A stretch of DNA of 64,000 nt, taken from contig CAVZJJ010000002.1 of NCBI GenBank assembly GCA_963775555.1, positions 647,397 through 711,396 of the forward strand, written 5' to 3'. The position numbers were made by a program, and so were the translations under genes. The notes below the pieces were generated by a model. That model worked only from the letters and a program-made list of their open reading frames with translations. It had not been told where the DNA came from and ran no database searches. The DNA comes from an uncultured Bacteroidota bacterium (GTDB lineage Bacteria; Bacteroidota; Bacteroidia; AKYH767-A; 2013-40CM-41-45). This document shows, piece by piece, positions 17,231-39,783 of the stretch (its first letter is position 1; every line of letters starts with the position of its first letter).

Positions 17231-17304
17231 GGGCCCTTAGCTCATTCGGTTAGAGCAACAGACTCATAATCTGTGGGTGGTTGGTTCGATTCCAACAGGG
17301 CCCA
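17231..17304 (+). tRNA. tRNA with CAT anticodon, most likely tRNA-Ile2 (lysidine-modified)
   Basis: Acceptor stem GGGCCCT/AGGGCCC-A; D arm; anticodon stem ACAGA-CTCATAA-TCTGT; T loop GGTTCGATTCC; lacks initiator-Met features. Confidence 0.93.
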
Positions 17305-17308
17305 CTTT
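17292..17308 (+). repeat. left att core (tRNA 3' end)
   Basis: CCAACAGGGCCCACTTT, identical at 39678. Confidence 0.9.
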
Positions 17309-31635: not shown

Positions 31636-32281
31636 AAATTTATTTCGTGAAGCCGAAAAGTAATCTGCAAAACTACCGATGGTTTGGAGAACTTCTGCTT
31701 TCGTGTTATTAGGATTGGATTGCTTCGCAGGCTTGTTACTTGGGGAAATCAGTGGTATAGCCTATGGTTTATAGCTTACAGGTTTCGCTGGCTCACACAC
31801 ATTGAAAGTGCTATAGTCTATCACTCACAGGTTCCTGTTTGAGGTTCTATGAGTAAAAAGAGTGGCAGGAAAAACACAGGATTCCTGCTGGATTTTGTCG
31901 GATAAAGACGGAAGTACATCGAAAACAGACAAAAATCACTATTCTGGATATCTTTTACTTAGCTCCTGTAAGCGGTTCAGGTAAGGTTCAAATGTCCAGT
32001 TGTTAGGGTTGGCCTTCAATATAGCAAGGTGGCCAGTAATCATTTTCGGAATGTCTACTATTTCGGTATATGGATTCAGAAAAATGGAGTGGGAAGGTAA
32101 TGCTATTCCGGTAAAGAAGGTCTCCAGATCCATAATATCCTGTTTTAATCCTCCGGCCCGTGGTGTTTCGGGGTTGATAAAAGAATATGTTGGTTCAAAG
32201 TGTTTCAGCTCGACCATTGGCTGAACACTTGGGAGCTTTACGGTAGGTTGTAGTTTTAAAAAAACACCCAAATCTTTGAAT

Positions 32282-33401
32282 TGCCGTGTTCAACCAATAA
32301 GTGCAATTTAAAGATTTAAACTTTCACCTTGGGACTTTTAATTGTCCCAGGTGAAAGTTAAGCTGAGAAGCTTCATCTTTGGATTGCTTATGTCAAAAAA
32401 CTACACCCATCTCAACTCTGAACAAAGATATCAGATTGAAGCCTTATTAAAAAGCGGAATCGCTCAAAAGGATATTGCGAAAATTGTAAATAAATCGCCA
32501 TCCACGATAAGTCGAGAACTTAAACGGAATATACCAAAACGTGGAAGAGGAGCTTTGGTTTACACAGCTGAAAATGCACAACGGAAAACGGATCATCGGC
32601 ATCAAATCAAAATGAAAAAAGAAAGATTTACCGATGAAATGAAAGTGTGGACGCGTCTCTGGATGAAGAGTATAAAATTCAGTCCGGAATTAATTCATGT
32701 CGTTGGCAAAAATGAGTTAGGGGATTTTGTCAGCCACGAGACCATTTACAAGTGGATTTGGCGTTGTAAGCAAAGTAATTGTAAGGAAGATAGACAAGAC
32801 AAGAAACTGTATATGCACTTAGCACATGGACGTAGAAGAAGAAAGCGCGGATTAAGAAGAGATAGCCGGGGTATTATTCCAAACCGAGTGTCTATTGAAA
32901 ATCGTCCGAAAATCGTAGATAAAAGAAAGCGCTTGGGAGATTTTGAAGTAGATCTGATGATGGGAAAAAATCATCAGGGAGCTTTGCTTGTAATGACGGA
33001 TCGGGCATCTCTGAAAACCAAACTCACAAGGTTAGCCGGGAAAGACAGCATCATAATAAAGCGCGAAATTAAACGTAGATTAATCTCATTAAAGGGAATT
33101 GTTAAAACACTTACATTTGACAACGATAAGGCATTTAGTAAACATGAATCGATAGGAAAATCGCTGAATGCTACTACCTATTTTACCCGGCCTTATACCT
33201 CACAAGATAAAGGAACTGTAGAAAACAGAATAGGATTAATCCGCAGATTCTTCCCAAAGAAAACAGACCTATTGAAAGTACCTGACATAGATGTTCAAAT
33301 AGTAGAATCAATAATTAATAACAGACCAGTAAGAAAATTTAATTATCAAACACCTAACCAAGTCTTCTCACAAAAAATTGCACTTATTACTTGAACTTAC
33401 A
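32282..33401 (+). mobile_element. IS30-family element, copy 1 (1120 bp)
   Basis: TG...CA ends sharing GTTCAAnnAATAAGTGCAATTT; 2-bp AT duplication. Confidence 0.93.
32390..33394 (+). CDS. IS30 transposase
   Basis: STISRELKRN HTH, GDFEVD, TFDNDKAF, KGTVEN, NNRPVR. Confidence 0.95.
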   Translation: MSKNYTHLNSEQRYQIEALLKSGIAQKDIAKIVNKSPSTISRELKRNIPKRGRGALVYTAENAQRKTDHRHQIKMKKERFTDEMKVWTRLWMKSIKFSPELIHVVGKNELGDFVSHETIYKWIWRCKQSNCKEDRQDKKLYMHLAHGRRRRKRGLRRDSRGIIPNRVSIENRPKIVDKRKRLGDFEVDLMMGKNHQGALLVMTDRASLKTKLTRLAGKDSIIIKREIKRRLISLKGIVKTLTFDNDKAFSKHESIGKSLNATTYFTRPYTSQDKGTVENRIGLIRRFFPKKTDLLKVPDIDVQIVESIINNRPVRKFNYQTPNQVFSQKIALIT

Positions 33402-34381
33402 ATTGTAAAAAGTCCCTTAGGTCGTATTTCTGTTTTACCAGTTCACTGTACTCAATTCCGTTTTGTTCAGCAAAAATTAAAGCATTGGTTTTAATCAGTT
33501 GAGAAACTTGAACTGTCAGACCGTAACTTCTTAGTATTTCAGCTTTCTGTTCCCAGTCGTAGTGAGCATCGATGTCGGGGTATAGTATTACATTTCGTCC
33601 GTTCAATACACTGCATTTCTCCTTTTCAGTCCATTTACAGCCGTTACTTCCGCCAGTGGCAAGGCATACACTATCAGGGTAAAAAGGTGCTGCGTAGGTC
33701 GCAGTAGCTTCGCTTTCGAATATCCTCACCTTTTTGCTGTTTCCTCTCAATAGATGTTCCCCATAAAAACAACGAGATGTATTTGCCTCAGGATTGTTTA
33801 GTATCTCTTTACCGATATACCTGCATTTTACAAATGGCTCTTTTATTCGTTTGCCAGTGGATGGATTGTAATCCATTGCTTTAATATCGCGTACCTTTCC
33901 ATTTATATCAATATAGGGGAACAATATCCAGCCTTTGTATTTATCTTTATTCGAATTGGCTAAAAAGTAATCCTGAATTATTCTTTCTAATGTATTGACA
34001 TCAAACGCAAAATCTCCCCTTTCGGGATTAGCCAACCATTGTATAAAATGGTTTTGTCTATAAAGAGGTGTGCCATTATTCAACTGCTTCATAAAAATAT
34101 CATCGGGGATAAACTGAATCTTAGGTTGCGGCTTGACCATTGGTATAATGAATCTTTTCGGTTGTGGTTTTTTCCATTGTTCAGACTGTGGTAACTCAGG
34201 TAAAAAAGTTTCTCCGCATGAATGACAATACCCATAATTTTCATGACCAACATAAGGAGCAAATTTGCCGTCTTTGTTGCTTTTTCCGCAAGGACAGGTT
34301 TTTATTCGAAGTCGATTTTTGTCAAACACAAGTTTTAGTAATGTATCGATCATAGAATAGTTCATTTTCTTAATCGTAGTT

Positions 34382-34468
34382 TGGCACATGGCACAAGCGG
34401 CATTTGTGGCACAAGTGGCATTTTGTTTGTGCCGTTTGTGCCATTAGTGCCGTAAATGCCAAATGCCA
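34382..34468. repeat. mirror-symmetric GGCA/TGCC iteron array (candidate replication origin)
   Basis: GGCA at 34383, 34390, 34399, 34408, 34417 and TGCC at 34430, 34439, 34448, 34457, 34464. Confidence 0.75.
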
Positions 34469-34473
34469 TTTGA

Positions 34474-35961
34474 TTAAATACGTTTTTCATATTCGCCCCT
34501 GCTTGTCCGGTTAAATAATTCCTTATCGTTCAGAAACCGTTTGTAAGTCCTTTCAGCAACTCCCAAACTTTTAGCTATTTGTAAGCCCGCTTCAGTTGTA
34601 AACGTGTCAGGTAATGCAATGTAAAGGGTTTGTTTGTCGGATGGGTGTTTATCCAAGGGGCTGGCATTTGAAATAATAGAATTTACTTTTATGGCTGAAT
34701 TTTTGAAATACTCAACCAGCTTTAAAGCCCCCTGCATTGCCTCAACGCTTATCGCTTGTTTGTTGCTTTCATTACAGGCATACTTCATCATTTCAAGTAT
34801 TAAAGCCAACCGAACAGCGTACATTTCCATTTTGCTATAAATACCGCTTACCGCTTCGTTTTCGGCATCATTACTTTGGTCGGTGTTTGCTTTCTGCCAT
34901 TCAAACAATATCCTTTTGGCTTCGGGTGTGAACTTCAATATTTCGGGGCTGGGGTTTAGTGTTTCATCATAGGTAATTGATAAGCTCAATAAGTTTGAAA
35001 CAATGTTTTGCCAACTCTCAATAACATCGGGGTTCAAGTCCTTTTCAGTCCAGTATGTTTTTTGTATGTTATCGGGAATTACAAACAGTATCCTATCAAT
35101 AAAACCGTTTTGGGTTCGGCTCTCTTTTGCAAGTTCGTTTAGTATCCCGGTTTGAATAGTTCCACAAACTGAAATAAAAGGTAAGGGAATAAATACGGGT
35201 TCTCCTGTTTTTCGGTCAATATTTATAGGCTTACCGCTCCAGACAGATAACCAAAATTCCATTTCGCTGCCTTTGTTGTATCGGTTGAAGTTCTTAAACC
35301 AACCTGCCAACTCATCAGCATAAACCCCGATACCCCGTTTATTAAATTTGTGAACTTCGGCAAGAGCTTCGGGTGTGAAATCTGATAAAAGAAACTTTTG
35401 CCAAACGGGTTTTATGGGATCGTCAATAGAATTTAATTCTCTTTCATTTTTTGATAGGCTTGCAGCCTTTCTATATTCCTGCCTTTGCTGTTCGTATTGC
35501 ATGTAAGTCCTTTTATCCTGCTCAACTATGGGTTGAATGGCAAAACTTAACGGGTGGCTTTTATTCGTTCCTGCACGGGCTACAATGGCAATATATAAAA
35601 CCGGACTTTCCAGCCAACCTTTTTTTACTTCAACCCTGTGGGTATTTCCAATGGCAACCGAAACAGCGTAAAGTATTGAAGCCCCGATAAAATCAATAGG
35701 GAAATTTAAGTTTTCATTTGTGGCTGCAATTATTTGCTGAATAGGCAACGGGAATACCTCAACCGGGAATCGATTTATCTGATTTGCTTTAGCTTCGATG
35801 AATAACCTTGTCAGTTGTTCGTCTTCGTTGATTATGTCTTCAGTACCAATCCCAGTTTTCACAAAAACAAATACTGGCTCCAATCCGTTTAATTTTGCAC
35901 CTCTTTTTATGCCTTGTTCGGGATTATTTGAATTGTCAAGGGAACTCAAATGGTCTTTCAT
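34474..35961 (-). CDS. DUF3987 domain protein (P-loop-like replication protein of integrative elements)
   Basis: FPVEVFP, ARAGTNKSHPL, DFTPEAL, DELAGW, GTIQTG and GFIDRILF motifs. Confidence 0.82.
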   Translation of the reverse strand: MKDHLSSLDNSNNPEQGIKRGAKLNGLEPVFVFVKTGIGTEDIINEDEQLTRLFIEAKANQINRFPVEVFPLPIQQIIAATNENLNFPIDFIGASILYAVSVAIGNTHRVEVKKGWLESPVLYIAIVARAGTNKSHPLSFAIQPIVEQDKRTYMQYEQQRQEYRKAASLSKNERELNSIDDPIKPVWQKFLLSDFTPEALAEVHKFNKRGIGVYADELAGWFKNFNRYNKGSEMEFWLSVWSGKPINIDRKTGEPVFIPLPFISVCGTIQTGILNELAKESRTQNGFIDRILFVIPDNIQKTYWTEKDLNPDVIESWQNIVSNLLSLSITYDETLNPSPEILKFTPEAKRILFEWQKANTDQSNDAENEAVSGIYSKMEMYAVRLALILEMMKYACNESNKQAISVEAMQGALKLVEYFKNSAIKVNSIISNASPLDKHPSDKQTLYIALPDTFTTEAGLQIAKSLGVAERTYKRFLNDKELFNRTSRGEYEKRI

Positions 35962-35976
35962 TTACAGTTCCCTTCT

Positions 35977-36270
35977 TTAATTAGAGAACCTTTTGACGAA
36001 AGCATCAATTGTAGCCTTTGAGAAAAGCACCTTGCCTCCGAATGATATTGCAGGGAGATCCCCGCTATTTCGATACTTCCAAAGAGTTTTAGGGCTTTTG
36101 ATTTTTAAAATTGCCATTGTTTCTTTTGGAGTGAACAACTTTGCATTTTCATCATCCACGTTTTTTTCAGATAGGATTTTAGAAAACTTTGCCACCTCTT
36201 CTTTGATATCATTCAAATCTTTCTGATTCACTACTACCAATTGCGTACTTTCATTGTGGTTTGCTTCCAT
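35977..36270 (-). CDS. HTH_17-type excisionase / DNA-binding protein
   Basis: FTPKETMAILKIKSPKTLWKYRNSGDL...GGKVLFS; position near the integrase. Confidence 0.8.
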   Translation of the reverse strand: MEANHNESTQLVVVNQKDLNDIKEEVAKFSKILSEKNVDDENAKLFTPKETMAILKIKSPKTLWKYRNSGDLPAISFGGKVLFSKATIDAFVKRFSN

Positions 36271-36368
36271 TTGCTTTTTTTTAAAGGTTCTATGGAGCAA
36301 AAATTCGCCTTTTAATGATTCCTAAGGTAGGAACAAATCAAATTAATTTTTTCAGAAAAGTTTCTAAG

Positions 36369-37488
36369 TGTAAGTTCAAGTAATAAGTGCAATTTTTTGT
36401 GAGAAGACTTGGTTAGGTGTTTGATAATTAAATTTTCTTACTGGTCTGTTATTAATTATTGATTCTACTATTTGAACATCTATGTCAGGTACTTTCAATA
36501 GGTCTGTTTTCTTTGGGAAGAATCTGCGGATTAATCCTATTCTGTTTTCTACAGTTCCTTTATCTTGTGAGGTATAAGGCCGGGTAAAATAGGTAGTAGC
36601 ATTCAGCGATTTTCCTATCGATTCATGTTTACTAAATGCCTTATCGTTGTCAAATGTAAGTGTTTTAACAATTCCCTTTAATGAGATTAATCTACGTTTA
36701 ATTTCGCGCTTTATTATGATGCTGTCTTTCCCGGCTAACCTTGTGAGTTTGGTTTTCAGAGATGCCCGATCCGTCATTACAAGCAAAGCTCCCTGATGAT
36801 TTTTTCCCATCATCAGATCTACTTCAAAATCTCCCAAGCGCTTTCTTTTATCTACGATTTTCGGACGATTTTCAATAGACACTCGGTTTGGAATAATACC
36901 CCGGCTATCTCTTCTTAATCCGCGCTTTCTTCTTCTACGTCCATGTGCTAAGTGCATATACAGTTTCTTGTCTTGTCTATCTTCCTTACAATTACTTTGC
37001 TTACAACGCCAAATCCACTTGTAAATGGTCTCGTGGCTGACAAAATCCCCTAACTCATTTTTGCCAACGACATGAATTAATTCCGGACTGAATTTTATAC
37101 TCTTCATCCAGAGACGCGTCCACACTTTCATTTCATCGGTAAATCTTTCTTTTTTCATTTTGATTTGATGCCGATGATCCGTTTTCCGTTGTGCATTTTC
37201 AGCTGTGTAAACCAAAGCTCCTCTTCCACGTTTTGGTATATTCCGTTTAAGTTCTCGACTTATCGTGGATGGCGATTTATTTACAATTTTCGCAATATCC
37301 TTTTGAGCGATTCCGCTTTTTAATAAGGCTTCAATCTGATATCTTTGTTCAGAGTTGAGATGGGTGTAGTTTTTTGACATAAGCAATCCAAAGATGAAGC
37401 TTCTCAGCTTAACTTTCACCTGGGACAATTAAAAGTCCCAAGGTGAAAGTTTAAATCTTTAAATTGCACTTATTGGTTGAACACGGCA
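36369..37488 (-). mobile_element. IS30-family element, copy 2 (1120 bp, inverted relative to copy 1)
   Basis: Same ends and identical transposase protein; 2-bp AG duplication. Confidence 0.93.
36376..37380 (-). CDS. IS30 transposase
   Basis: Protein identical to 32390-33394. Confidence 0.95.
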   Translation of the reverse strand: MSKNYTHLNSEQRYQIEALLKSGIAQKDIAKIVNKSPSTISRELKRNIPKRGRGALVYTAENAQRKTDHRHQIKMKKERFTDEMKVWTRLWMKSIKFSPELIHVVGKNELGDFVSHETIYKWIWRCKQSNCKEDRQDKKLYMHLAHGRRRRKRGLRRDSRGIIPNRVSIENRPKIVDKRKRLGDFEVDLMMGKNHQGALLVMTDRASLKTKLTRLAGKDSIIIKREIKRRLISLKGIVKTLTFDNDKAFSKHESIGKSLNATTYFTRPYTSQDKGTVENRIGLIRRFFPKKTDLLKVPDIDVQIVESIINNRPVRKFNYQTPNQVFSQKIALIT

Positions 37489-38274
37489 AGATATTTTTTC
37501 AGATTTCGCATTCTTTTTAAAATAGCCTTTCACTGCTTGTTGTAGCACGAGGTCTTTCTTTGTCTTTATAGACCTAATATCCTTTTTTTGTGATTCTACA
37601 GGAGCCTCAGCAAGCTTTAATTTTCCGGATAGGTAAAGAACCCAAGCGCATAAAATTTCAGATATGTTTTTTGATTTTCCGAGACTACTAAAATAGTCGA
37701 AACATTCATTGGCGATAAGTCTTCCCAAATATGTTTGTTTGACACGGCCAAGGATATGTGTCGGACCAAGGTCAGATTGCTCCCATTTGTAACCCTTAAT
37801 TAGTTTTTTGATCCGTGTAATAATCCATGTGTTATCAATTATTATTTTTGTGTTCTTATGCTTAATTCTGAAAGAAATATTATCGATATCAGATTCTACA
37901 ATTTTATCAAGTTCGTCTTCTCTGGAGTTCACTCTGAACCTATCATCAATTTCGCCATCTATATTCAAACACCGGGTTCTCATATAATTCATTATTTGAG
38001 GATGATCATCCCCACATGCATAAAACAGGAGGAAGTAAAAATTTAAAATGTACTTTTTTAAGTCATACCGTTCAAGTAGCTTGATAATCTCGTCATTGTG
38101 GGTAAGGGCTTCGGCGAATTGTTTAAAATGTTTGGTGGGTTTTTCTAATTCTTTTTCACAATGAACAGTTTGATATTCCTTCCCCCAGGAAAGAAAGTCA
38201 AGGAATGATTCTTTTTTAAACTTGTTAGCCTTAAACTTGCTGAGCAATTCAGCCGGGTTAGGGTTTTCTTGCAT
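37459..38274 (-). CDS. hypothetical island protein (IS30 inserted at its stop codon, adding 10 aa)
   Basis: 271-aa ORF directly after the integrase; pre-insertion sequence ends AKSEKIS-TAG. Confidence 0.7.
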   Translation of the reverse strand: MQENPNPAELLSKFKANKFKKESFLDFLSWGKEYQTVHCEKELEKPTKHFKQFAEALTHNDEIIKLLERYDLKKYILNFYFLLFYACGDDHPQIMNYMRTRCLNIDGEIDDRFRVNSREDELDKIVESDIDNISFRIKHKNTKIIIDNTWIITRIKKLIKGYKWEQSDLGPTHILGRVKQTYLGRLIANECFDYFSSLGKSKNISEILCAWVLYLSGKLKLAEAPVESQKKDIRSIKTKKDLVLQQAVKGYFKKNAKSEKISCRVQPISAI

Positions 38275-38278
38275 AGAA

Positions 38279-39496
38279 TTAATATTTTAAAATTGAGGCG
38301 TGAGTATCATCAAGTGTCTGGGTGTTGAAGGAGTTCAAATACTGTTCGGTGACTTGTTTACTGCTATGCCCAAGTAGTTCTGAGTTCTTTTGAAGTTCTA
38401 TTCCACTCTGTTTTGCCAGATTTGCAAAAGAATGTCTCGCCACATGACTGCTTAGGTTTTTTTTGATCCCAGCTTTTTTAGCAATTTGTTTCAAATACTT
38501 ATTGATTAGGGCCTCTTGCCTACTTATTTCGTTATGCCTCTTATGAGGATCTTTCATATCTGCAAAAGAATTGATGATAGGGAATATATAACCTTTAGTT
38601 TTTAATTTACCTCCCCTGTAATGGTTGAGAATTTTTAATGACTTGGCAAAGACTTTCACAGACATTAATTTGCCTGTTTTGTTCATTCTGTATTCTATTC
38701 GCTCGTTAATTAGATTGCTCCACTCCAATTCCATTAGGTCTCCGATGCGAATACCGGCACAATAGAATGAAAACAAGAAGTAGTTTTTACAATGCCAAAT
38801 CAATGAGTCAGGTTCAAGAATTAGGGCTTCAAGACTTTTTATTTCTTTAACGGTTAATTTCTCTTTACTCCCAGGCTCGGTTTGAAGCTTAAAATTGAAG
38901 AAAGGGTTTCTTTCTTGAGTTGCTATTCCTTCATTAATTGCCTGATAAAACAAGGCTTTTATAGATTTTAAATTGCTGTGAATAGTATTCTTTTTATTTC
39001 CAAGTTTTGTAAGGTGATGTTTATAGTCTGTTAAAAAGGTAACTGTAAGGTCTTCAAATAAGAGGTGTTTCCCTTTGTGGTAATCCCTTAGCTTGCCTAC
39101 TATTGATTTATATTTTTTATATGAAGAAATTCTCCCCTCCTCCAAGGTCATTTGAATTTTTTTTTCGGCAAATTGAAAGAAATCCGTTGTATATCCCTTG
39201 TGGTGGGCTAAAATTGCCGTCATTGTAGGATTAGGTGTATCTTTCTCAATCTCAGAAAGGGATTGCTCGACCTCCTTTAACTTTCTTTTCAACCGATTGT
39301 TTAATTGTGAGTGTTGGGGATTGCTGGTACGGACCCAGTTGCCATATTTGGCTTTTTTATTAAATTCGCTTGCCCTTAGAAAGACACCAGTTGAGATTCG
39401 GCGATGTCTTCTGTTCTGAGTGATACGAATGAGTATGCCGGTGGTTTTATCCTCTTTAGGCTTAGAGTTTAGTTCTAAATTGAATGTAGTAGTCAT
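38279..39496 (-). CDS. tyrosine recombinase / integrase with Bacteroidota arm-binding and SAM-like domains
   Basis: ILIRITQNR...ISTG arm domain; catalytic GIRIGD, K, HVARHSFA, LLGH and Y intact. Confidence 0.93.
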   Translation of the reverse strand: MTTTFNLELNSKPKEDKTTGILIRITQNRRHRRISTGVFLRASEFNKKAKYGNWVRTSNPQHSQLNNRLKRKLKEVEQSLSEIEKDTPNPTMTAILAHHKGYTTDFFQFAEKKIQMTLEEGRISSYKKYKSIVGKLRDYHKGKHLLFEDLTVTFLTDYKHHLTKLGNKKNTIHSNLKSIKALFYQAINEGIATQERNPFFNFKLQTEPGSKEKLTVKEIKSLEALILEPDSLIWHCKNYFLFSFYCAGIRIGDLMELEWSNLINERIEYRMNKTGKLMSVKVFAKSLKILNHYRGGKLKTKGYIFPIINSFADMKDPHKRHNEISRQEALINKYLKQIAKKAGIKKNLSSHVARHSFANLAKQSGIELQKNSELLGHSSKQVTEQYLNSFNTQTLDDTHASILKY

Positions 39497-39677
39497 GATT
39501 CTTATTTTAATATCCAAAGCAAAGATAACTAACTTGAGTACTACTGTAACAATACTGAAACAAAATGTAAATTCAAATAATTTTGGATGCCTTAAAATAC
39601 TAATACAAGTGCTTGTAAACCAAAGAGAATAATGAAATGTCGGGTATTTGAAATTATTCCAATATCTCATTTGTAGG

Positions 39678-39694
39678 CCAACAGGGCCCACTTT
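39678..39694 (+). repeat. right att core (duplicated tRNA 3' end)
   Basis: CCAACAGGGCCCACTTT, identical to 17292-17308. Confidence 0.9.
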
Positions 39695-39783
39695 TTTTCT
39701 TTCGACTATTTTCATGTTCCTGATCCAATTGAATTAGACCGTTCCGGATCAGTTTTCTGAGATATGAAACCGGTGCCGCCGGT

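Follow-up and report, generated by a model that had tools for sequence, protein, structure and literature searches.

The closest described counterparts of the locus reported here are the replication origins of the Staphylococcus aureus pathogenicity islands (SaPIs), in which 6-12 penta- or hexanucleotide iterons lie directly downstream of rep, half of them on each side of an AT-rich region and in opposed orientation, and are recognised by a winged helix belonging to a self-loading helicase of superfamily 3 (SF3) or superfamily 6 (SF6) (PMC9371898). The central AT-rich region of these origins is described as ∼100 bp long, and the SaPI5 iterons L2-L4, each of 7 nt, have AA between them, with the C-terminal domains of neighbouring subunits bound to successive iterons (bioRxiv 10.64898/2026.10.17.759575); by our own arithmetic this gives a pitch of 9 bp. 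Here we describe an 85-bp array of ten short inverted repeats between a DUF3987 helicase gene and a primase-like gene in a 64-kb window, by which we mean the whole stretch of DNA analysed (64,000 nucleotides, positions 647,397 to 711,396 of contig CAVZJJ010000002.1 in assembly GCA_963775555.1, from an uncultured Bacteroidota bacterium). The array is probably an iteron-type replication origin, that is, the self-loading site of the helicase, for a ∼22.4-kb integrative island at a tRNA-Met gene.

The locus resembles the Rep-ori systems of SaPIs and other phage-inducible chromosomal islands, especially those of the SF6 Rep2/SaPIbov1 type, in having short iterons directly downstream of the helicase open reading frame (ORF) in two opposed sets, an AAA+ helicase with a C-terminal winged helix (iteron-reading in SaPIs and proposed to be so here), a primase encoded alongside and an integrase-bearing island around them. 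Iteron number also falls within the SaPI range, and the 9-bp pitch is common to SaPI5 L2-L4 and the present array. An extended AT-rich centre is not shared: SaPI origins are described as about 300 bp long with an AT-rich centre of about 100 bp, against 85 bp and 7 nt here. Gene order differs as well (pri, rep, ori in SaPIs; helicase, proposed ori, primase here), the host phylum is Bacteroidota rather than that of the staphylococcal islands, and, unlike in SaPIs, there is no sign of a helper phage or of packaging genes, and the cargo consists of anti-phage defence. In the one solved structure of such a complex, that of PriRep5, the wing does the base reading and the helix contacts the backbone (bioRxiv 10.64898/2026.10.17.759575), whereas the co-varying residue that we describe below lies in helix 3.

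DUF3987 itself has been placed in SF6 as a distant relative of MCM with a C-terminal winged helix and linkage to primases (Kazlauskas et al. 2016, PMC4889955). More recently, the PriCT-DUF3987 protein of a flavobacterial island bounded by an integrase and a tRNA was reported to be an oligomeric 5′-3′ helicase that binds its own primase-polymerase, and the authors propose that this pair, AgaPH and AgaPP, constitutes the island replication machinery (2025, PMC11724360). Like the locus in the window, that island is delimited by an integrase on one side and a tRNA on the other, encodes a primase beside a DUF3987 helicase whose C-terminal domain is small, and carries defence cargo; it differs in that AgaPH carries an N-terminal PriCT domain and has an archaeo-eukaryotic primase (AEP) PrimPol encoded upstream, whereas here a Zn-ribbon/DUF6371 primase is encoded downstream. 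The main text of PMC11724360, as distinct from its supplements, contains none of the terms “iteron”, “inverted repeat”, “winged” or “intergenic” and uses “origin” only in unrelated senses. A wider search of the literature on DUF3987, DUF6371 and Bacteroidetes iterons or origins, whose coverage excluded subscription journals and supplements, returned no description of the array, and the papers searched do not describe where or how DUF3987-primase islands replicate.

Short pentameric or octameric inverted sites also direct the assembly of hexameric helicase-initiators at the SV40/polyomavirus large T core origin and in the phage P4 alpha/ori-crr system. Large T and P4 alpha are, however, SF3-type proteins with other origin-binding domains, and P4 alpha is a fused primase-helicase-binding protein, whereas helicase and primase are separate proteins here. 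The iteron origins of theta plasmids (RepA, pi, TrfA) consist of direct repeats of ∼17-22 bp and are bound by a non-helicase Rep with the winged-helix domains WH1-WH2; we rejected an origin of this kind for an array with 5-bp units at a 9-bp pitch in inverted sets, the candidate binder of which is a helicase.

A conserved inverted array downstream of the helicase gene

The array and the two genes that border it are laid out as follows, with all of the relevant genes on the minus strand.

34383..34421, no strand assigned: iteron arm beside the primase-like gene, five GGCAY units on the plus strand (sequence, repeat finder, pattern count)
34422..34428, no strand assigned: AT-rich centre between the innermost inverted iterons, TTTTGTT on the plus strand, AAACAAA on the gene strand (sequence)
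34429..34467, no strand assigned: iteron arm beside the helicase stop codon, five RTGCC units on the plus strand (sequence, repeat finder, pattern count)
34474..35961, minus strand: DUF3987/MCM-like (SF6) AAA+ helicase, 495 aa, apparently intact (Pfam E 1.4e-66; phrog_2373)
34477..34656, minus strand: C-terminal winged-helix domain of the helicase, about residues 436-495, the proposed iteron reader (DSSP, model)
34537..34539, minus strand: codon of R475, CGG on the gene strand, in helix 3 (residues 470-476) of the winged helix
33410..34365, minus strand: primase-like gene with a Zn-ribbon motif and DUF6371 (Pfam DUF6371 E 1e-35; phrog_47)

The array (34383-34467) occupies the entire gap from the helicase stop codon to the primase start, with the unit core nearest the helicase ending 7 nt from the stop codon. 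On the plus strand it comprises GGCAC at 34383 and 34390, GGCAT at 34399, GGCAC at 34408 and GGCAT at 34417, followed by GTGCC at 34429, 34438 and 34447 and ATGCC at 34456 and 34463, with start-to-start spacings of 7, 9, 9 and 9 bp in the first arm and 9, 9, 9 and 7 bp in the second. An earlier interpretation of the locus, made from its letters alone (the sequence-only reading), had listed these 5+5 units with their mirrored spacing, and it was exact. A repeat finder reports the same region as an inverted repeat with arms at 34382-34420 and 34430-34468, each of 39 nt and 72% complementary across a 9-nt gap, and the G+C content of 100-nt windows over the array (42%) is slightly higher than that of the flanks. 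The ten-unit array is not a chance occurrence: the two-unit pattern GGCAYNNNNGGCAY has six matches in the window, all within the array, against an expectation of 0.32 and a largest count of 3 in 100 dinucleotide-preserving shuffles. Across the 4.2-Mb assembly a three-unit pattern gives two forward and two reverse matches, again all within the array, while the reversed-pattern control gives none, and no second copy of the array was found in the same 4.2 Mb. A 42-aa mechanical ORF that runs over the array (34362-34490) was rejected as coding sequence.

Helicase relatives are numerous: among 8,000 candidates that were scored, 1,654 clusters lie at E <= 1e-30. Within the window's own family, a homolog at E <= 1e-20 was present in only 1 of 53 other genomes, and the survey of homologous loci was therefore moved to species-wide and metagenome collections. 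The genome set consists of 80 loci on one-genome-per-species contigs (42-82% identity, nearly all labelled Bacteroidota) and the metagenome set of 80 of the 466 metagenome relatives; the stop codon lies within the retrieved DNA at 76 of the 80 genome-set loci and at 146 loci over both sets. By eye, an inverted array with a 9-bp pitch follows the helicase stop directly, before the next gene, in most of these 146 loci, and the genome-set arrays recognised in this way range from 3+3 to 5+5 units. A de novo array parser, ignorant of the repeat word and controlled with segments taken from the same loci, gave scores of at least 24 for 102 of 124 distinct downstream regions but for only 5 of 234 control segments, and scores of at least 28 for 78 of the 124 regions and none of the 234 controls. 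The array in the window scores 44.

The geometry of the array is kept along with its position. Among 55 parsed KGCAY arrays (K, G or T; Y, C or T), which have between 3+3 and 5+5 units, the spacings are 9 bp (253 cases), 7 bp (68) or 8 bp (4), and the first unit begins 4-16 nt beyond the stop codon, counted from its first base. The inner gap equals 7 or 8 modulo 9 in 38 of the 55, and the two arms thus keep phase. A+T content is 71% in these inner gaps and 81% in the spacers. The repeat word, in contrast, changes by lineage: GGCAY/RTGCC (R, A or G) is found in the window's group and TGCAY/RTGCA elsewhere, including a Muribaculaceae group, with GTCCT/AGGAC, GTCAC/GTGAC, GGCAA/TTGCC and one-armed GKCGGTTTT repeats as further words.

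Several loci depart from the simple layout. L019 (4342-4760) and L114 carry three tandem copies of a segment made up of the helicase-proximal arm (five GGCAC units) and the final bases of the helicase gene, with an A-rich stretch behind each copy, and then a ∼110-nt spacer and a single opposite arm; this layout is a more SaPI-like, expanded version of the proposed origin. L025 and the L131-L146 group have nested or doubled arrays of ∼200 nt, in which two proximal arms of three units each precede two opposite arms. At L007 (G022:C15) the stop codon of a DUF3987 gene of 40% identity is followed not by KGCAY units but by three TACAT direct repeats at spacings of 9 and 8 bp and then by a different small gene, while at L006, the second homolog of that genome, the array is of GGCAT units. 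The distal unit of TGCA-class arrays, RTGCAACAA (for example at L010 and L012), is similar to the SaPI5 iteron TGCAACC with its AA spacer, both in word and in the 9-bp pitch, although PriRep5 is an SF3 protein; this could be coincidence, convergence or shared winged-helix ancestry.

Inverted repeats of this size can fold, and the array strand taken as single-stranded DNA does so at -25.8 kcal/mol (z = -4.58, 200 shuffles). Across the parsed arrays, the core positions of the arms are 0.79 complementary and the spacer positions 0.55. However, spacers that are mirror partners are no more complementary (0.54) than non-partner spacers of the other arm (0.51), so that a selected hairpin is unsupported and repeated protein sites are favoured; because the spacer match is not specific to the register, the partial complementarity stems from the shared unit consensus rather than from selection for a stem. 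The earlier judgement that protein-binding sites fit the array better than a hairpin does is supported by this comparison. A terminator scan found no terminator-like site at the array, and Rfam returned only eukaryotic microRNA hairpin matches, far below gathering scores, which we rejected as generic hairpin likeness; with no credible Rfam match, an intrinsic terminator or structured RNA was rejected as well.

A winged-helix residue that co-varies with the repeat word

The helicase matches Pfam DUF3987 over residues 88-426 with 225.6 bits against a cut-off of 27, and PHROG phrog_2373 (“DNA helicase”) with an E-value of 1.1e-66. K134, D216 and E217 are invariant among 55 homologs, and we name them Walker A (K134) and Walker B (D216/E217) following the description in PMC11724360 and our own reading of the sequence. 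Searched against PDB sequences, the helicase family profile hit no chain at E <= 1. The AlphaFold2 model of the full protein (predicted local distance difference test, pLDDT, 86.2; predicted template modelling score, pTM, 0.80) has its best Foldseek matches among MCM subunits (MCM2-7) and SsoMCM, and also matches SCCmec Cch, ComM and RuvB. Of these, Cch, a self-loading helicase (PDB 5dgk; Foldseek rank 11, E 9.8e-4), is alike in its MCM-like AAA+ fold and in belonging to a staphylococcal mobile element, but it is assigned to Pfam DUF927 (PMC5862659) and its TM-score is only 0.30.

The last 60 residues show an H-E-H-H-E-E topology by DSSP. Modelled alone (pLDDT 90.9), this domain finds its best PDB match in the winged-helix domain of human MCM8 (TM 0.70/0.66, root-mean-square deviation 2.2 Å, Foldseek E 0.07), followed by the winged helices of MarR/SlyA, IdeR and DpnI. 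As modelled, the helicase has an MCM-like fold and a C-terminal winged-helix fold.

Position 475 was first suggested by aligned protein tails sorted by array type, after which every column of the full-length alignment was scanned. Arrays were classed as GGCA-major or TGCA-major, and the combined set of 130 loci divides into 61 GGCA, 34 TGCA, 5 mixed and 30 other. R475 is the top column in the genome set (mutual information, MI, 0.88; next column 0.65) and stands further apart in the combined set, where its MI is 0.92 of a class entropy of 0.95 bits and that of the next column is 0.35. Arginine is present at 60 of the 61 GGCA-class loci, the exception being a lysine that accompanies the word GGCAA, and at none of the 34 TGCA-class loci, which have Tyr (18), Asp (9), Asn (2), Ser (2), Lys (1), Glu (1) or Val (1) instead. 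The metagenome set, examined after the idea had formed, gives Arg at 32 of 32 GGCA loci and 0 of 15 TGCA loci. When all pairs of nine iteron positions and the columns of the C-terminal domain are compared, R475 with iteron position 1 accounts for 0.90 of that position's entropy and the next pair for 0.47; beyond R475, nothing convincing emerged as a further protein-base specificity pair in the winged helix.

Counted by unit, Arg-type arrays contain 349 GGCA and 10 TGCA units (97% GGCA), Tyr-type arrays 32 and 115, and Asp-type arrays 1 and 47. GGCA and TGCA units are mixed in 17 of 19 Tyr-type arrays. At Tyr-type loci (L010-L012, L036, L092-L097 and others) the GGCA units sit in the inner positions of the helicase-proximal arm and the distal arm is nearly all TGCA.

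Shared ancestry was addressed with a tree built without the C-terminal domain, on which the array class changes ten times overall. Six independent pairs fall on supported branches, and in these the residue shifts in the same direction in 5.9 and in the opposite direction in 0 (median p 0.031); the genome set alone provides five independent pairs (p 0.0625). Proteins that are 86% identical can differ both in array class and at residue 475 (R versus Y or S) while the helix is otherwise identical (ERTFK-x-FLNE). The proteins encoded on either side served as controls and behave differently: the best column is at MI 0.32 for the upstream HTH_17 protein and at MI 0.49, in a hypervariable column, for the downstream primase-like protein. 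Taken together, these comparisons give strong, though indirect, computational support to the DUF3987 winged helix as the probable reader of the array.

The proposed origin and competing explanations

A conserved array directly after the helicase stop, a repeat word that changes between lineages, a winged-helix residue that changes with it and the computed folds are the observations from which we start. We consider it likely that the array is the origin of the island, and by analogy with SaPI Rep/ori we propose the following course of events. After excision, helicase hexamers would dock through their flexible, tethered C-terminal winged helices, each of which would read one KGCAY pentamer, with Arg475 in helix 3 specifying the first G. 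One arm, whose five sites follow each other at 9 bp except for the outermost, at 7 bp, may dock one hexamer with up to five of its six winged helices bound, and the opposed arm a second hexamer in the opposite orientation. Given opposed arms across a 7-nt AT-rich centre, the two hexamers would load oppositely and open the DNA, with melting of the AT-rich centre and of the spacers (81% A+T), and the Zn-ribbon/DUF6371 primase encoded directly downstream would then prime synthesis on the excised circle.

The sequence-only reading had proposed that the array is the element's replication origin and is bound by the DUF3987 protein, and had suggested a survey downstream of DUF3987 genes and a search for co-variation with the C-terminal domain. 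Both comparisons favour that proposal: arrays are kept at the same place in the proportions given above, and R475 tracks iteron base 1 to an extent that neither flanking protein approaches; the origin function itself is argued by analogy. Its further suggestion, that binding would give DUF3987 a function, is partly overtaken because DUF3987 has already been described as an MCM-like helicase and that role is published (PMC4889955, PMC11724360), leaving as new the proposed initiator or origin-reading role and the site.

A number of points weigh against this interpretation. The support is comparative throughout, the thresholds that define the array classes were chosen after the pattern had been seen, the independent-pair test comprises only six pairs, and the agreement in the metagenome set is not a fully independent replication because some of its loci repeat genome-set records (for example L153 and L035, by eye). 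The position of R475 in a helix, where PriRep5 reads bases with its wing, means either that the mode of reading differs or that a direct contact is wrongly supposed. The AgaPH homolog unwinds 5′-3′ (PMC11724360), and SaPI Reps are described as 3′-5′ (PMC9371898). A long AT-rich unwinding region is absent at the array, the centre of which is only 7 nt. Moreover, the primase-like gene in the window is cut by an insertion sequence (IS), and this copy of the island may therefore no longer replicate.

The array is also not universal, with 22 of the 124 downstream regions scoring below 24 and five (L038, L063, L106, L113 and L118) scoring 0, while L120, a close copy of L118, has no array within the 1.5-3 kb retrieved. 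L063 and L106 nevertheless have a one-armed run of RTGCC units despite their parser score. L113, L118 and L120 lack the array (at about 2880-2910), their helicase ORF is ∼15 residues longer and runs straight into the conserved primase-like start, and no KGCAY triple was found elsewhere in the retrieved DNA. L106 has an arm of three GGCAC units upstream of the helicase start (1344), with three RTGCC units just after the stop (2897) and again ∼650 nt further on (3541); arms that flank the helicase gene in this way may reflect a rearrangement.

The strongest competitor, which we regard as unlikely, is that the array is an operator only, through which the winged helix or another island protein regulates the primase gene or autoregulates the operon, with replication starting elsewhere or not at all. 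It would suit an array that fills the whole gap between helicase stop and primase start and begins close to the stop in the 55 parsed arrays, with no long AT-rich unwinding element beside it, and autoregulation by initiators through their binding sites is common. Nevertheless, an operator would not need ten sites in two opposed sets at a fixed pitch, and the same layout in SaPIs is an origin. Nor was a sigma-70-like promoter found at the array, although the scan does not cover Bacteroidota-type promoters. An operator role could in any case coexist with an origin role.

A use of the array as a docking pad for some other purpose, such as partition-like tethering, control of excision or DNA packaging, seems improbable. 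The evidence points to the probable binder rather than to the consequence of binding, and two sets of five repeats are also found in plasmid centromeres, for instance parC of R1. On the other side, no partition or packaging genes occur among the island ORFs scanned, the probable binder is an MCM-like helicase encoded beside a primase, and the published homologous design is an origin.

Least probable of all is that the array acts chiefly as a structured nucleic-acid signal, a hairpin or cruciform serving as single-strand initiation site, origin of transfer or RNA attenuator to which the repeats are secondary, an idea that draws on the stable fold and the 72% complementary arms but that fits poorly with spacer complementarity that is independent of register, with the results of the terminator and Rfam searches and with the lack of a relaxase among the island ORFs scanned, and that leaves the co-variation with a winged-helix residue unexplained.

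Beyond the origin itself, we put forward tentatively, and as less likely than not to hold in all its parts, a joint interpretation in which a single winged-helix residue sets the origin specificity of the family, specificity changes through a promiscuous intermediate, the array is a minimal double-hexamer pad and its pitch follows a geometric rule. On this proposal Arg475 would demand G at position 1, Tyr would relax the choice and the Asp-type loci would represent a completed switch to TGCA.

The island and its implications

The island extends from 17292 to 39694, and its other features relevant here are given below.

17292..17308, no strand assigned: attL, a 17-nt direct repeat over the 3′ end of tRNA-Met (17231-17305)
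31939..32271, minus strand: DUF6965 ORF (Pfam DUF6965 E 7e-18)
32281..33409, plus strand: IS30-family copy A, which interrupts the primase-like gene
35977..36300, minus strand: small HTH_17/excisionase-like DNA-binding protein, upstream of the helicase (family matches)
36361..37489, minus strand: IS30-family copy B, between the HTH_17 gene and the 271-aa protein and integrase genes
38279..39715, minus strand: tyrosine integrase of the island (Pfam Phage_integrase, SAM_5, Arm-DNA-bind_5)
39678..39694, no strand assigned: attR, the second copy of the 17-nt direct repeat, upstream of the integrase

The occurrence of the 17-nt direct repeat both at tRNA-Met and upstream of the integrase bounds the island at ∼22.4 kb. 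From the integrase inwards the order is integrase, a 271-aa protein without family match, an IS30 copy, HTH_17, DUF3987, array, primase-like gene, the inverted IS30 copy and the DUF6965 ORF. As called mechanically, the integrase ORF begins with an implausible N-terminal extension of 73 residues; because attR falls within this extension, the true start probably lies inside the mechanical ORF, at a Met at about 39496. The cargo is mostly of anti-phage type, comprising an AbiC-like protein, DUF5677, a Type ISP restriction-modification enzyme, a 1028-aa SIR2 protein and an IS21 pair, together with a 320-aa protein that has a weak nucleoside deoxyribosyltransferase-like match.

The mechanical ORF of the primase-like gene on the minus strand (33397-34389, 330 aa) matches DUF6371 and PHROG phrog_47 (“DNA primase”, E 3.9e-9), but its first ATG, at 34389, lies within an iteron and was rejected as the start because the conserved N-terminus of the downstream protein begins at the ATG at 34365, which is the likely start. 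IS30 copy A, with its boundary at 33409/33410, removes the C-terminal part of the gene: the intact homolog at L027 has 405 aa and extends past the end of the window's protein. The DUF6965 ORF is probably the severed C-terminal part, and the long homolog at L014 has a C-terminal stretch that looks similar to it by eye. Copies A and B are 1129 bp long, 100% identical and mutually inverted, and the assembly contains at least 22 complete, identical copies of this IS30-family element, suggestive of a recent burst. Since gene order is the same as in relatives, there has been no net inversion between the two copies. The helicase, the primase-like protein, the 271-aa protein and the DUF6965 ORF all lack an NCBIfam model, and a PDB search by sequence gave no meaningful match for the primase-like protein. 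The matching sequencing runs are two DNA runs (shares 0.07 and 0.06), with no RNA run listed.

Islands that are bounded by an integrase and encode both a DUF3987 helicase and a primase occur widely in Bacteroidota, and defence genes are carried both by the island in the window and by the published flavobacterial example (PMC11724360). The array described here is most likely a SaPI-like self-loading helicase origin of such Bacteroidota defence islands, its layout matching the published SaPI Rep/ori design. Together with the proposed origin-reading role and the site, what is new is a testable rule of single-residue specificity, with Arg for G and Tyr, Asp, Asn or Ser for T at iteron base 1. On a practical level, an 85-bp origin and its reader could provide a small and possibly orthogonal replicon part for Bacteroidota genetics. 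Should the joint interpretation hold, islands would change their origin specificity via a promiscuous intermediate and so escape cross-talk with co-resident relatives, a 5+5 array of 85 bp would represent a minimal double-hexamer loading pad that dispenses with a long AT-rich element, and the 9-bp pitch in common with SaPI5, despite a helicase of another superfamily, would point to a geometric rule for hexameric self-loading helicases. If the array is such an origin, the self-loading helicase model would extend beyond the staphylococcal satellites.

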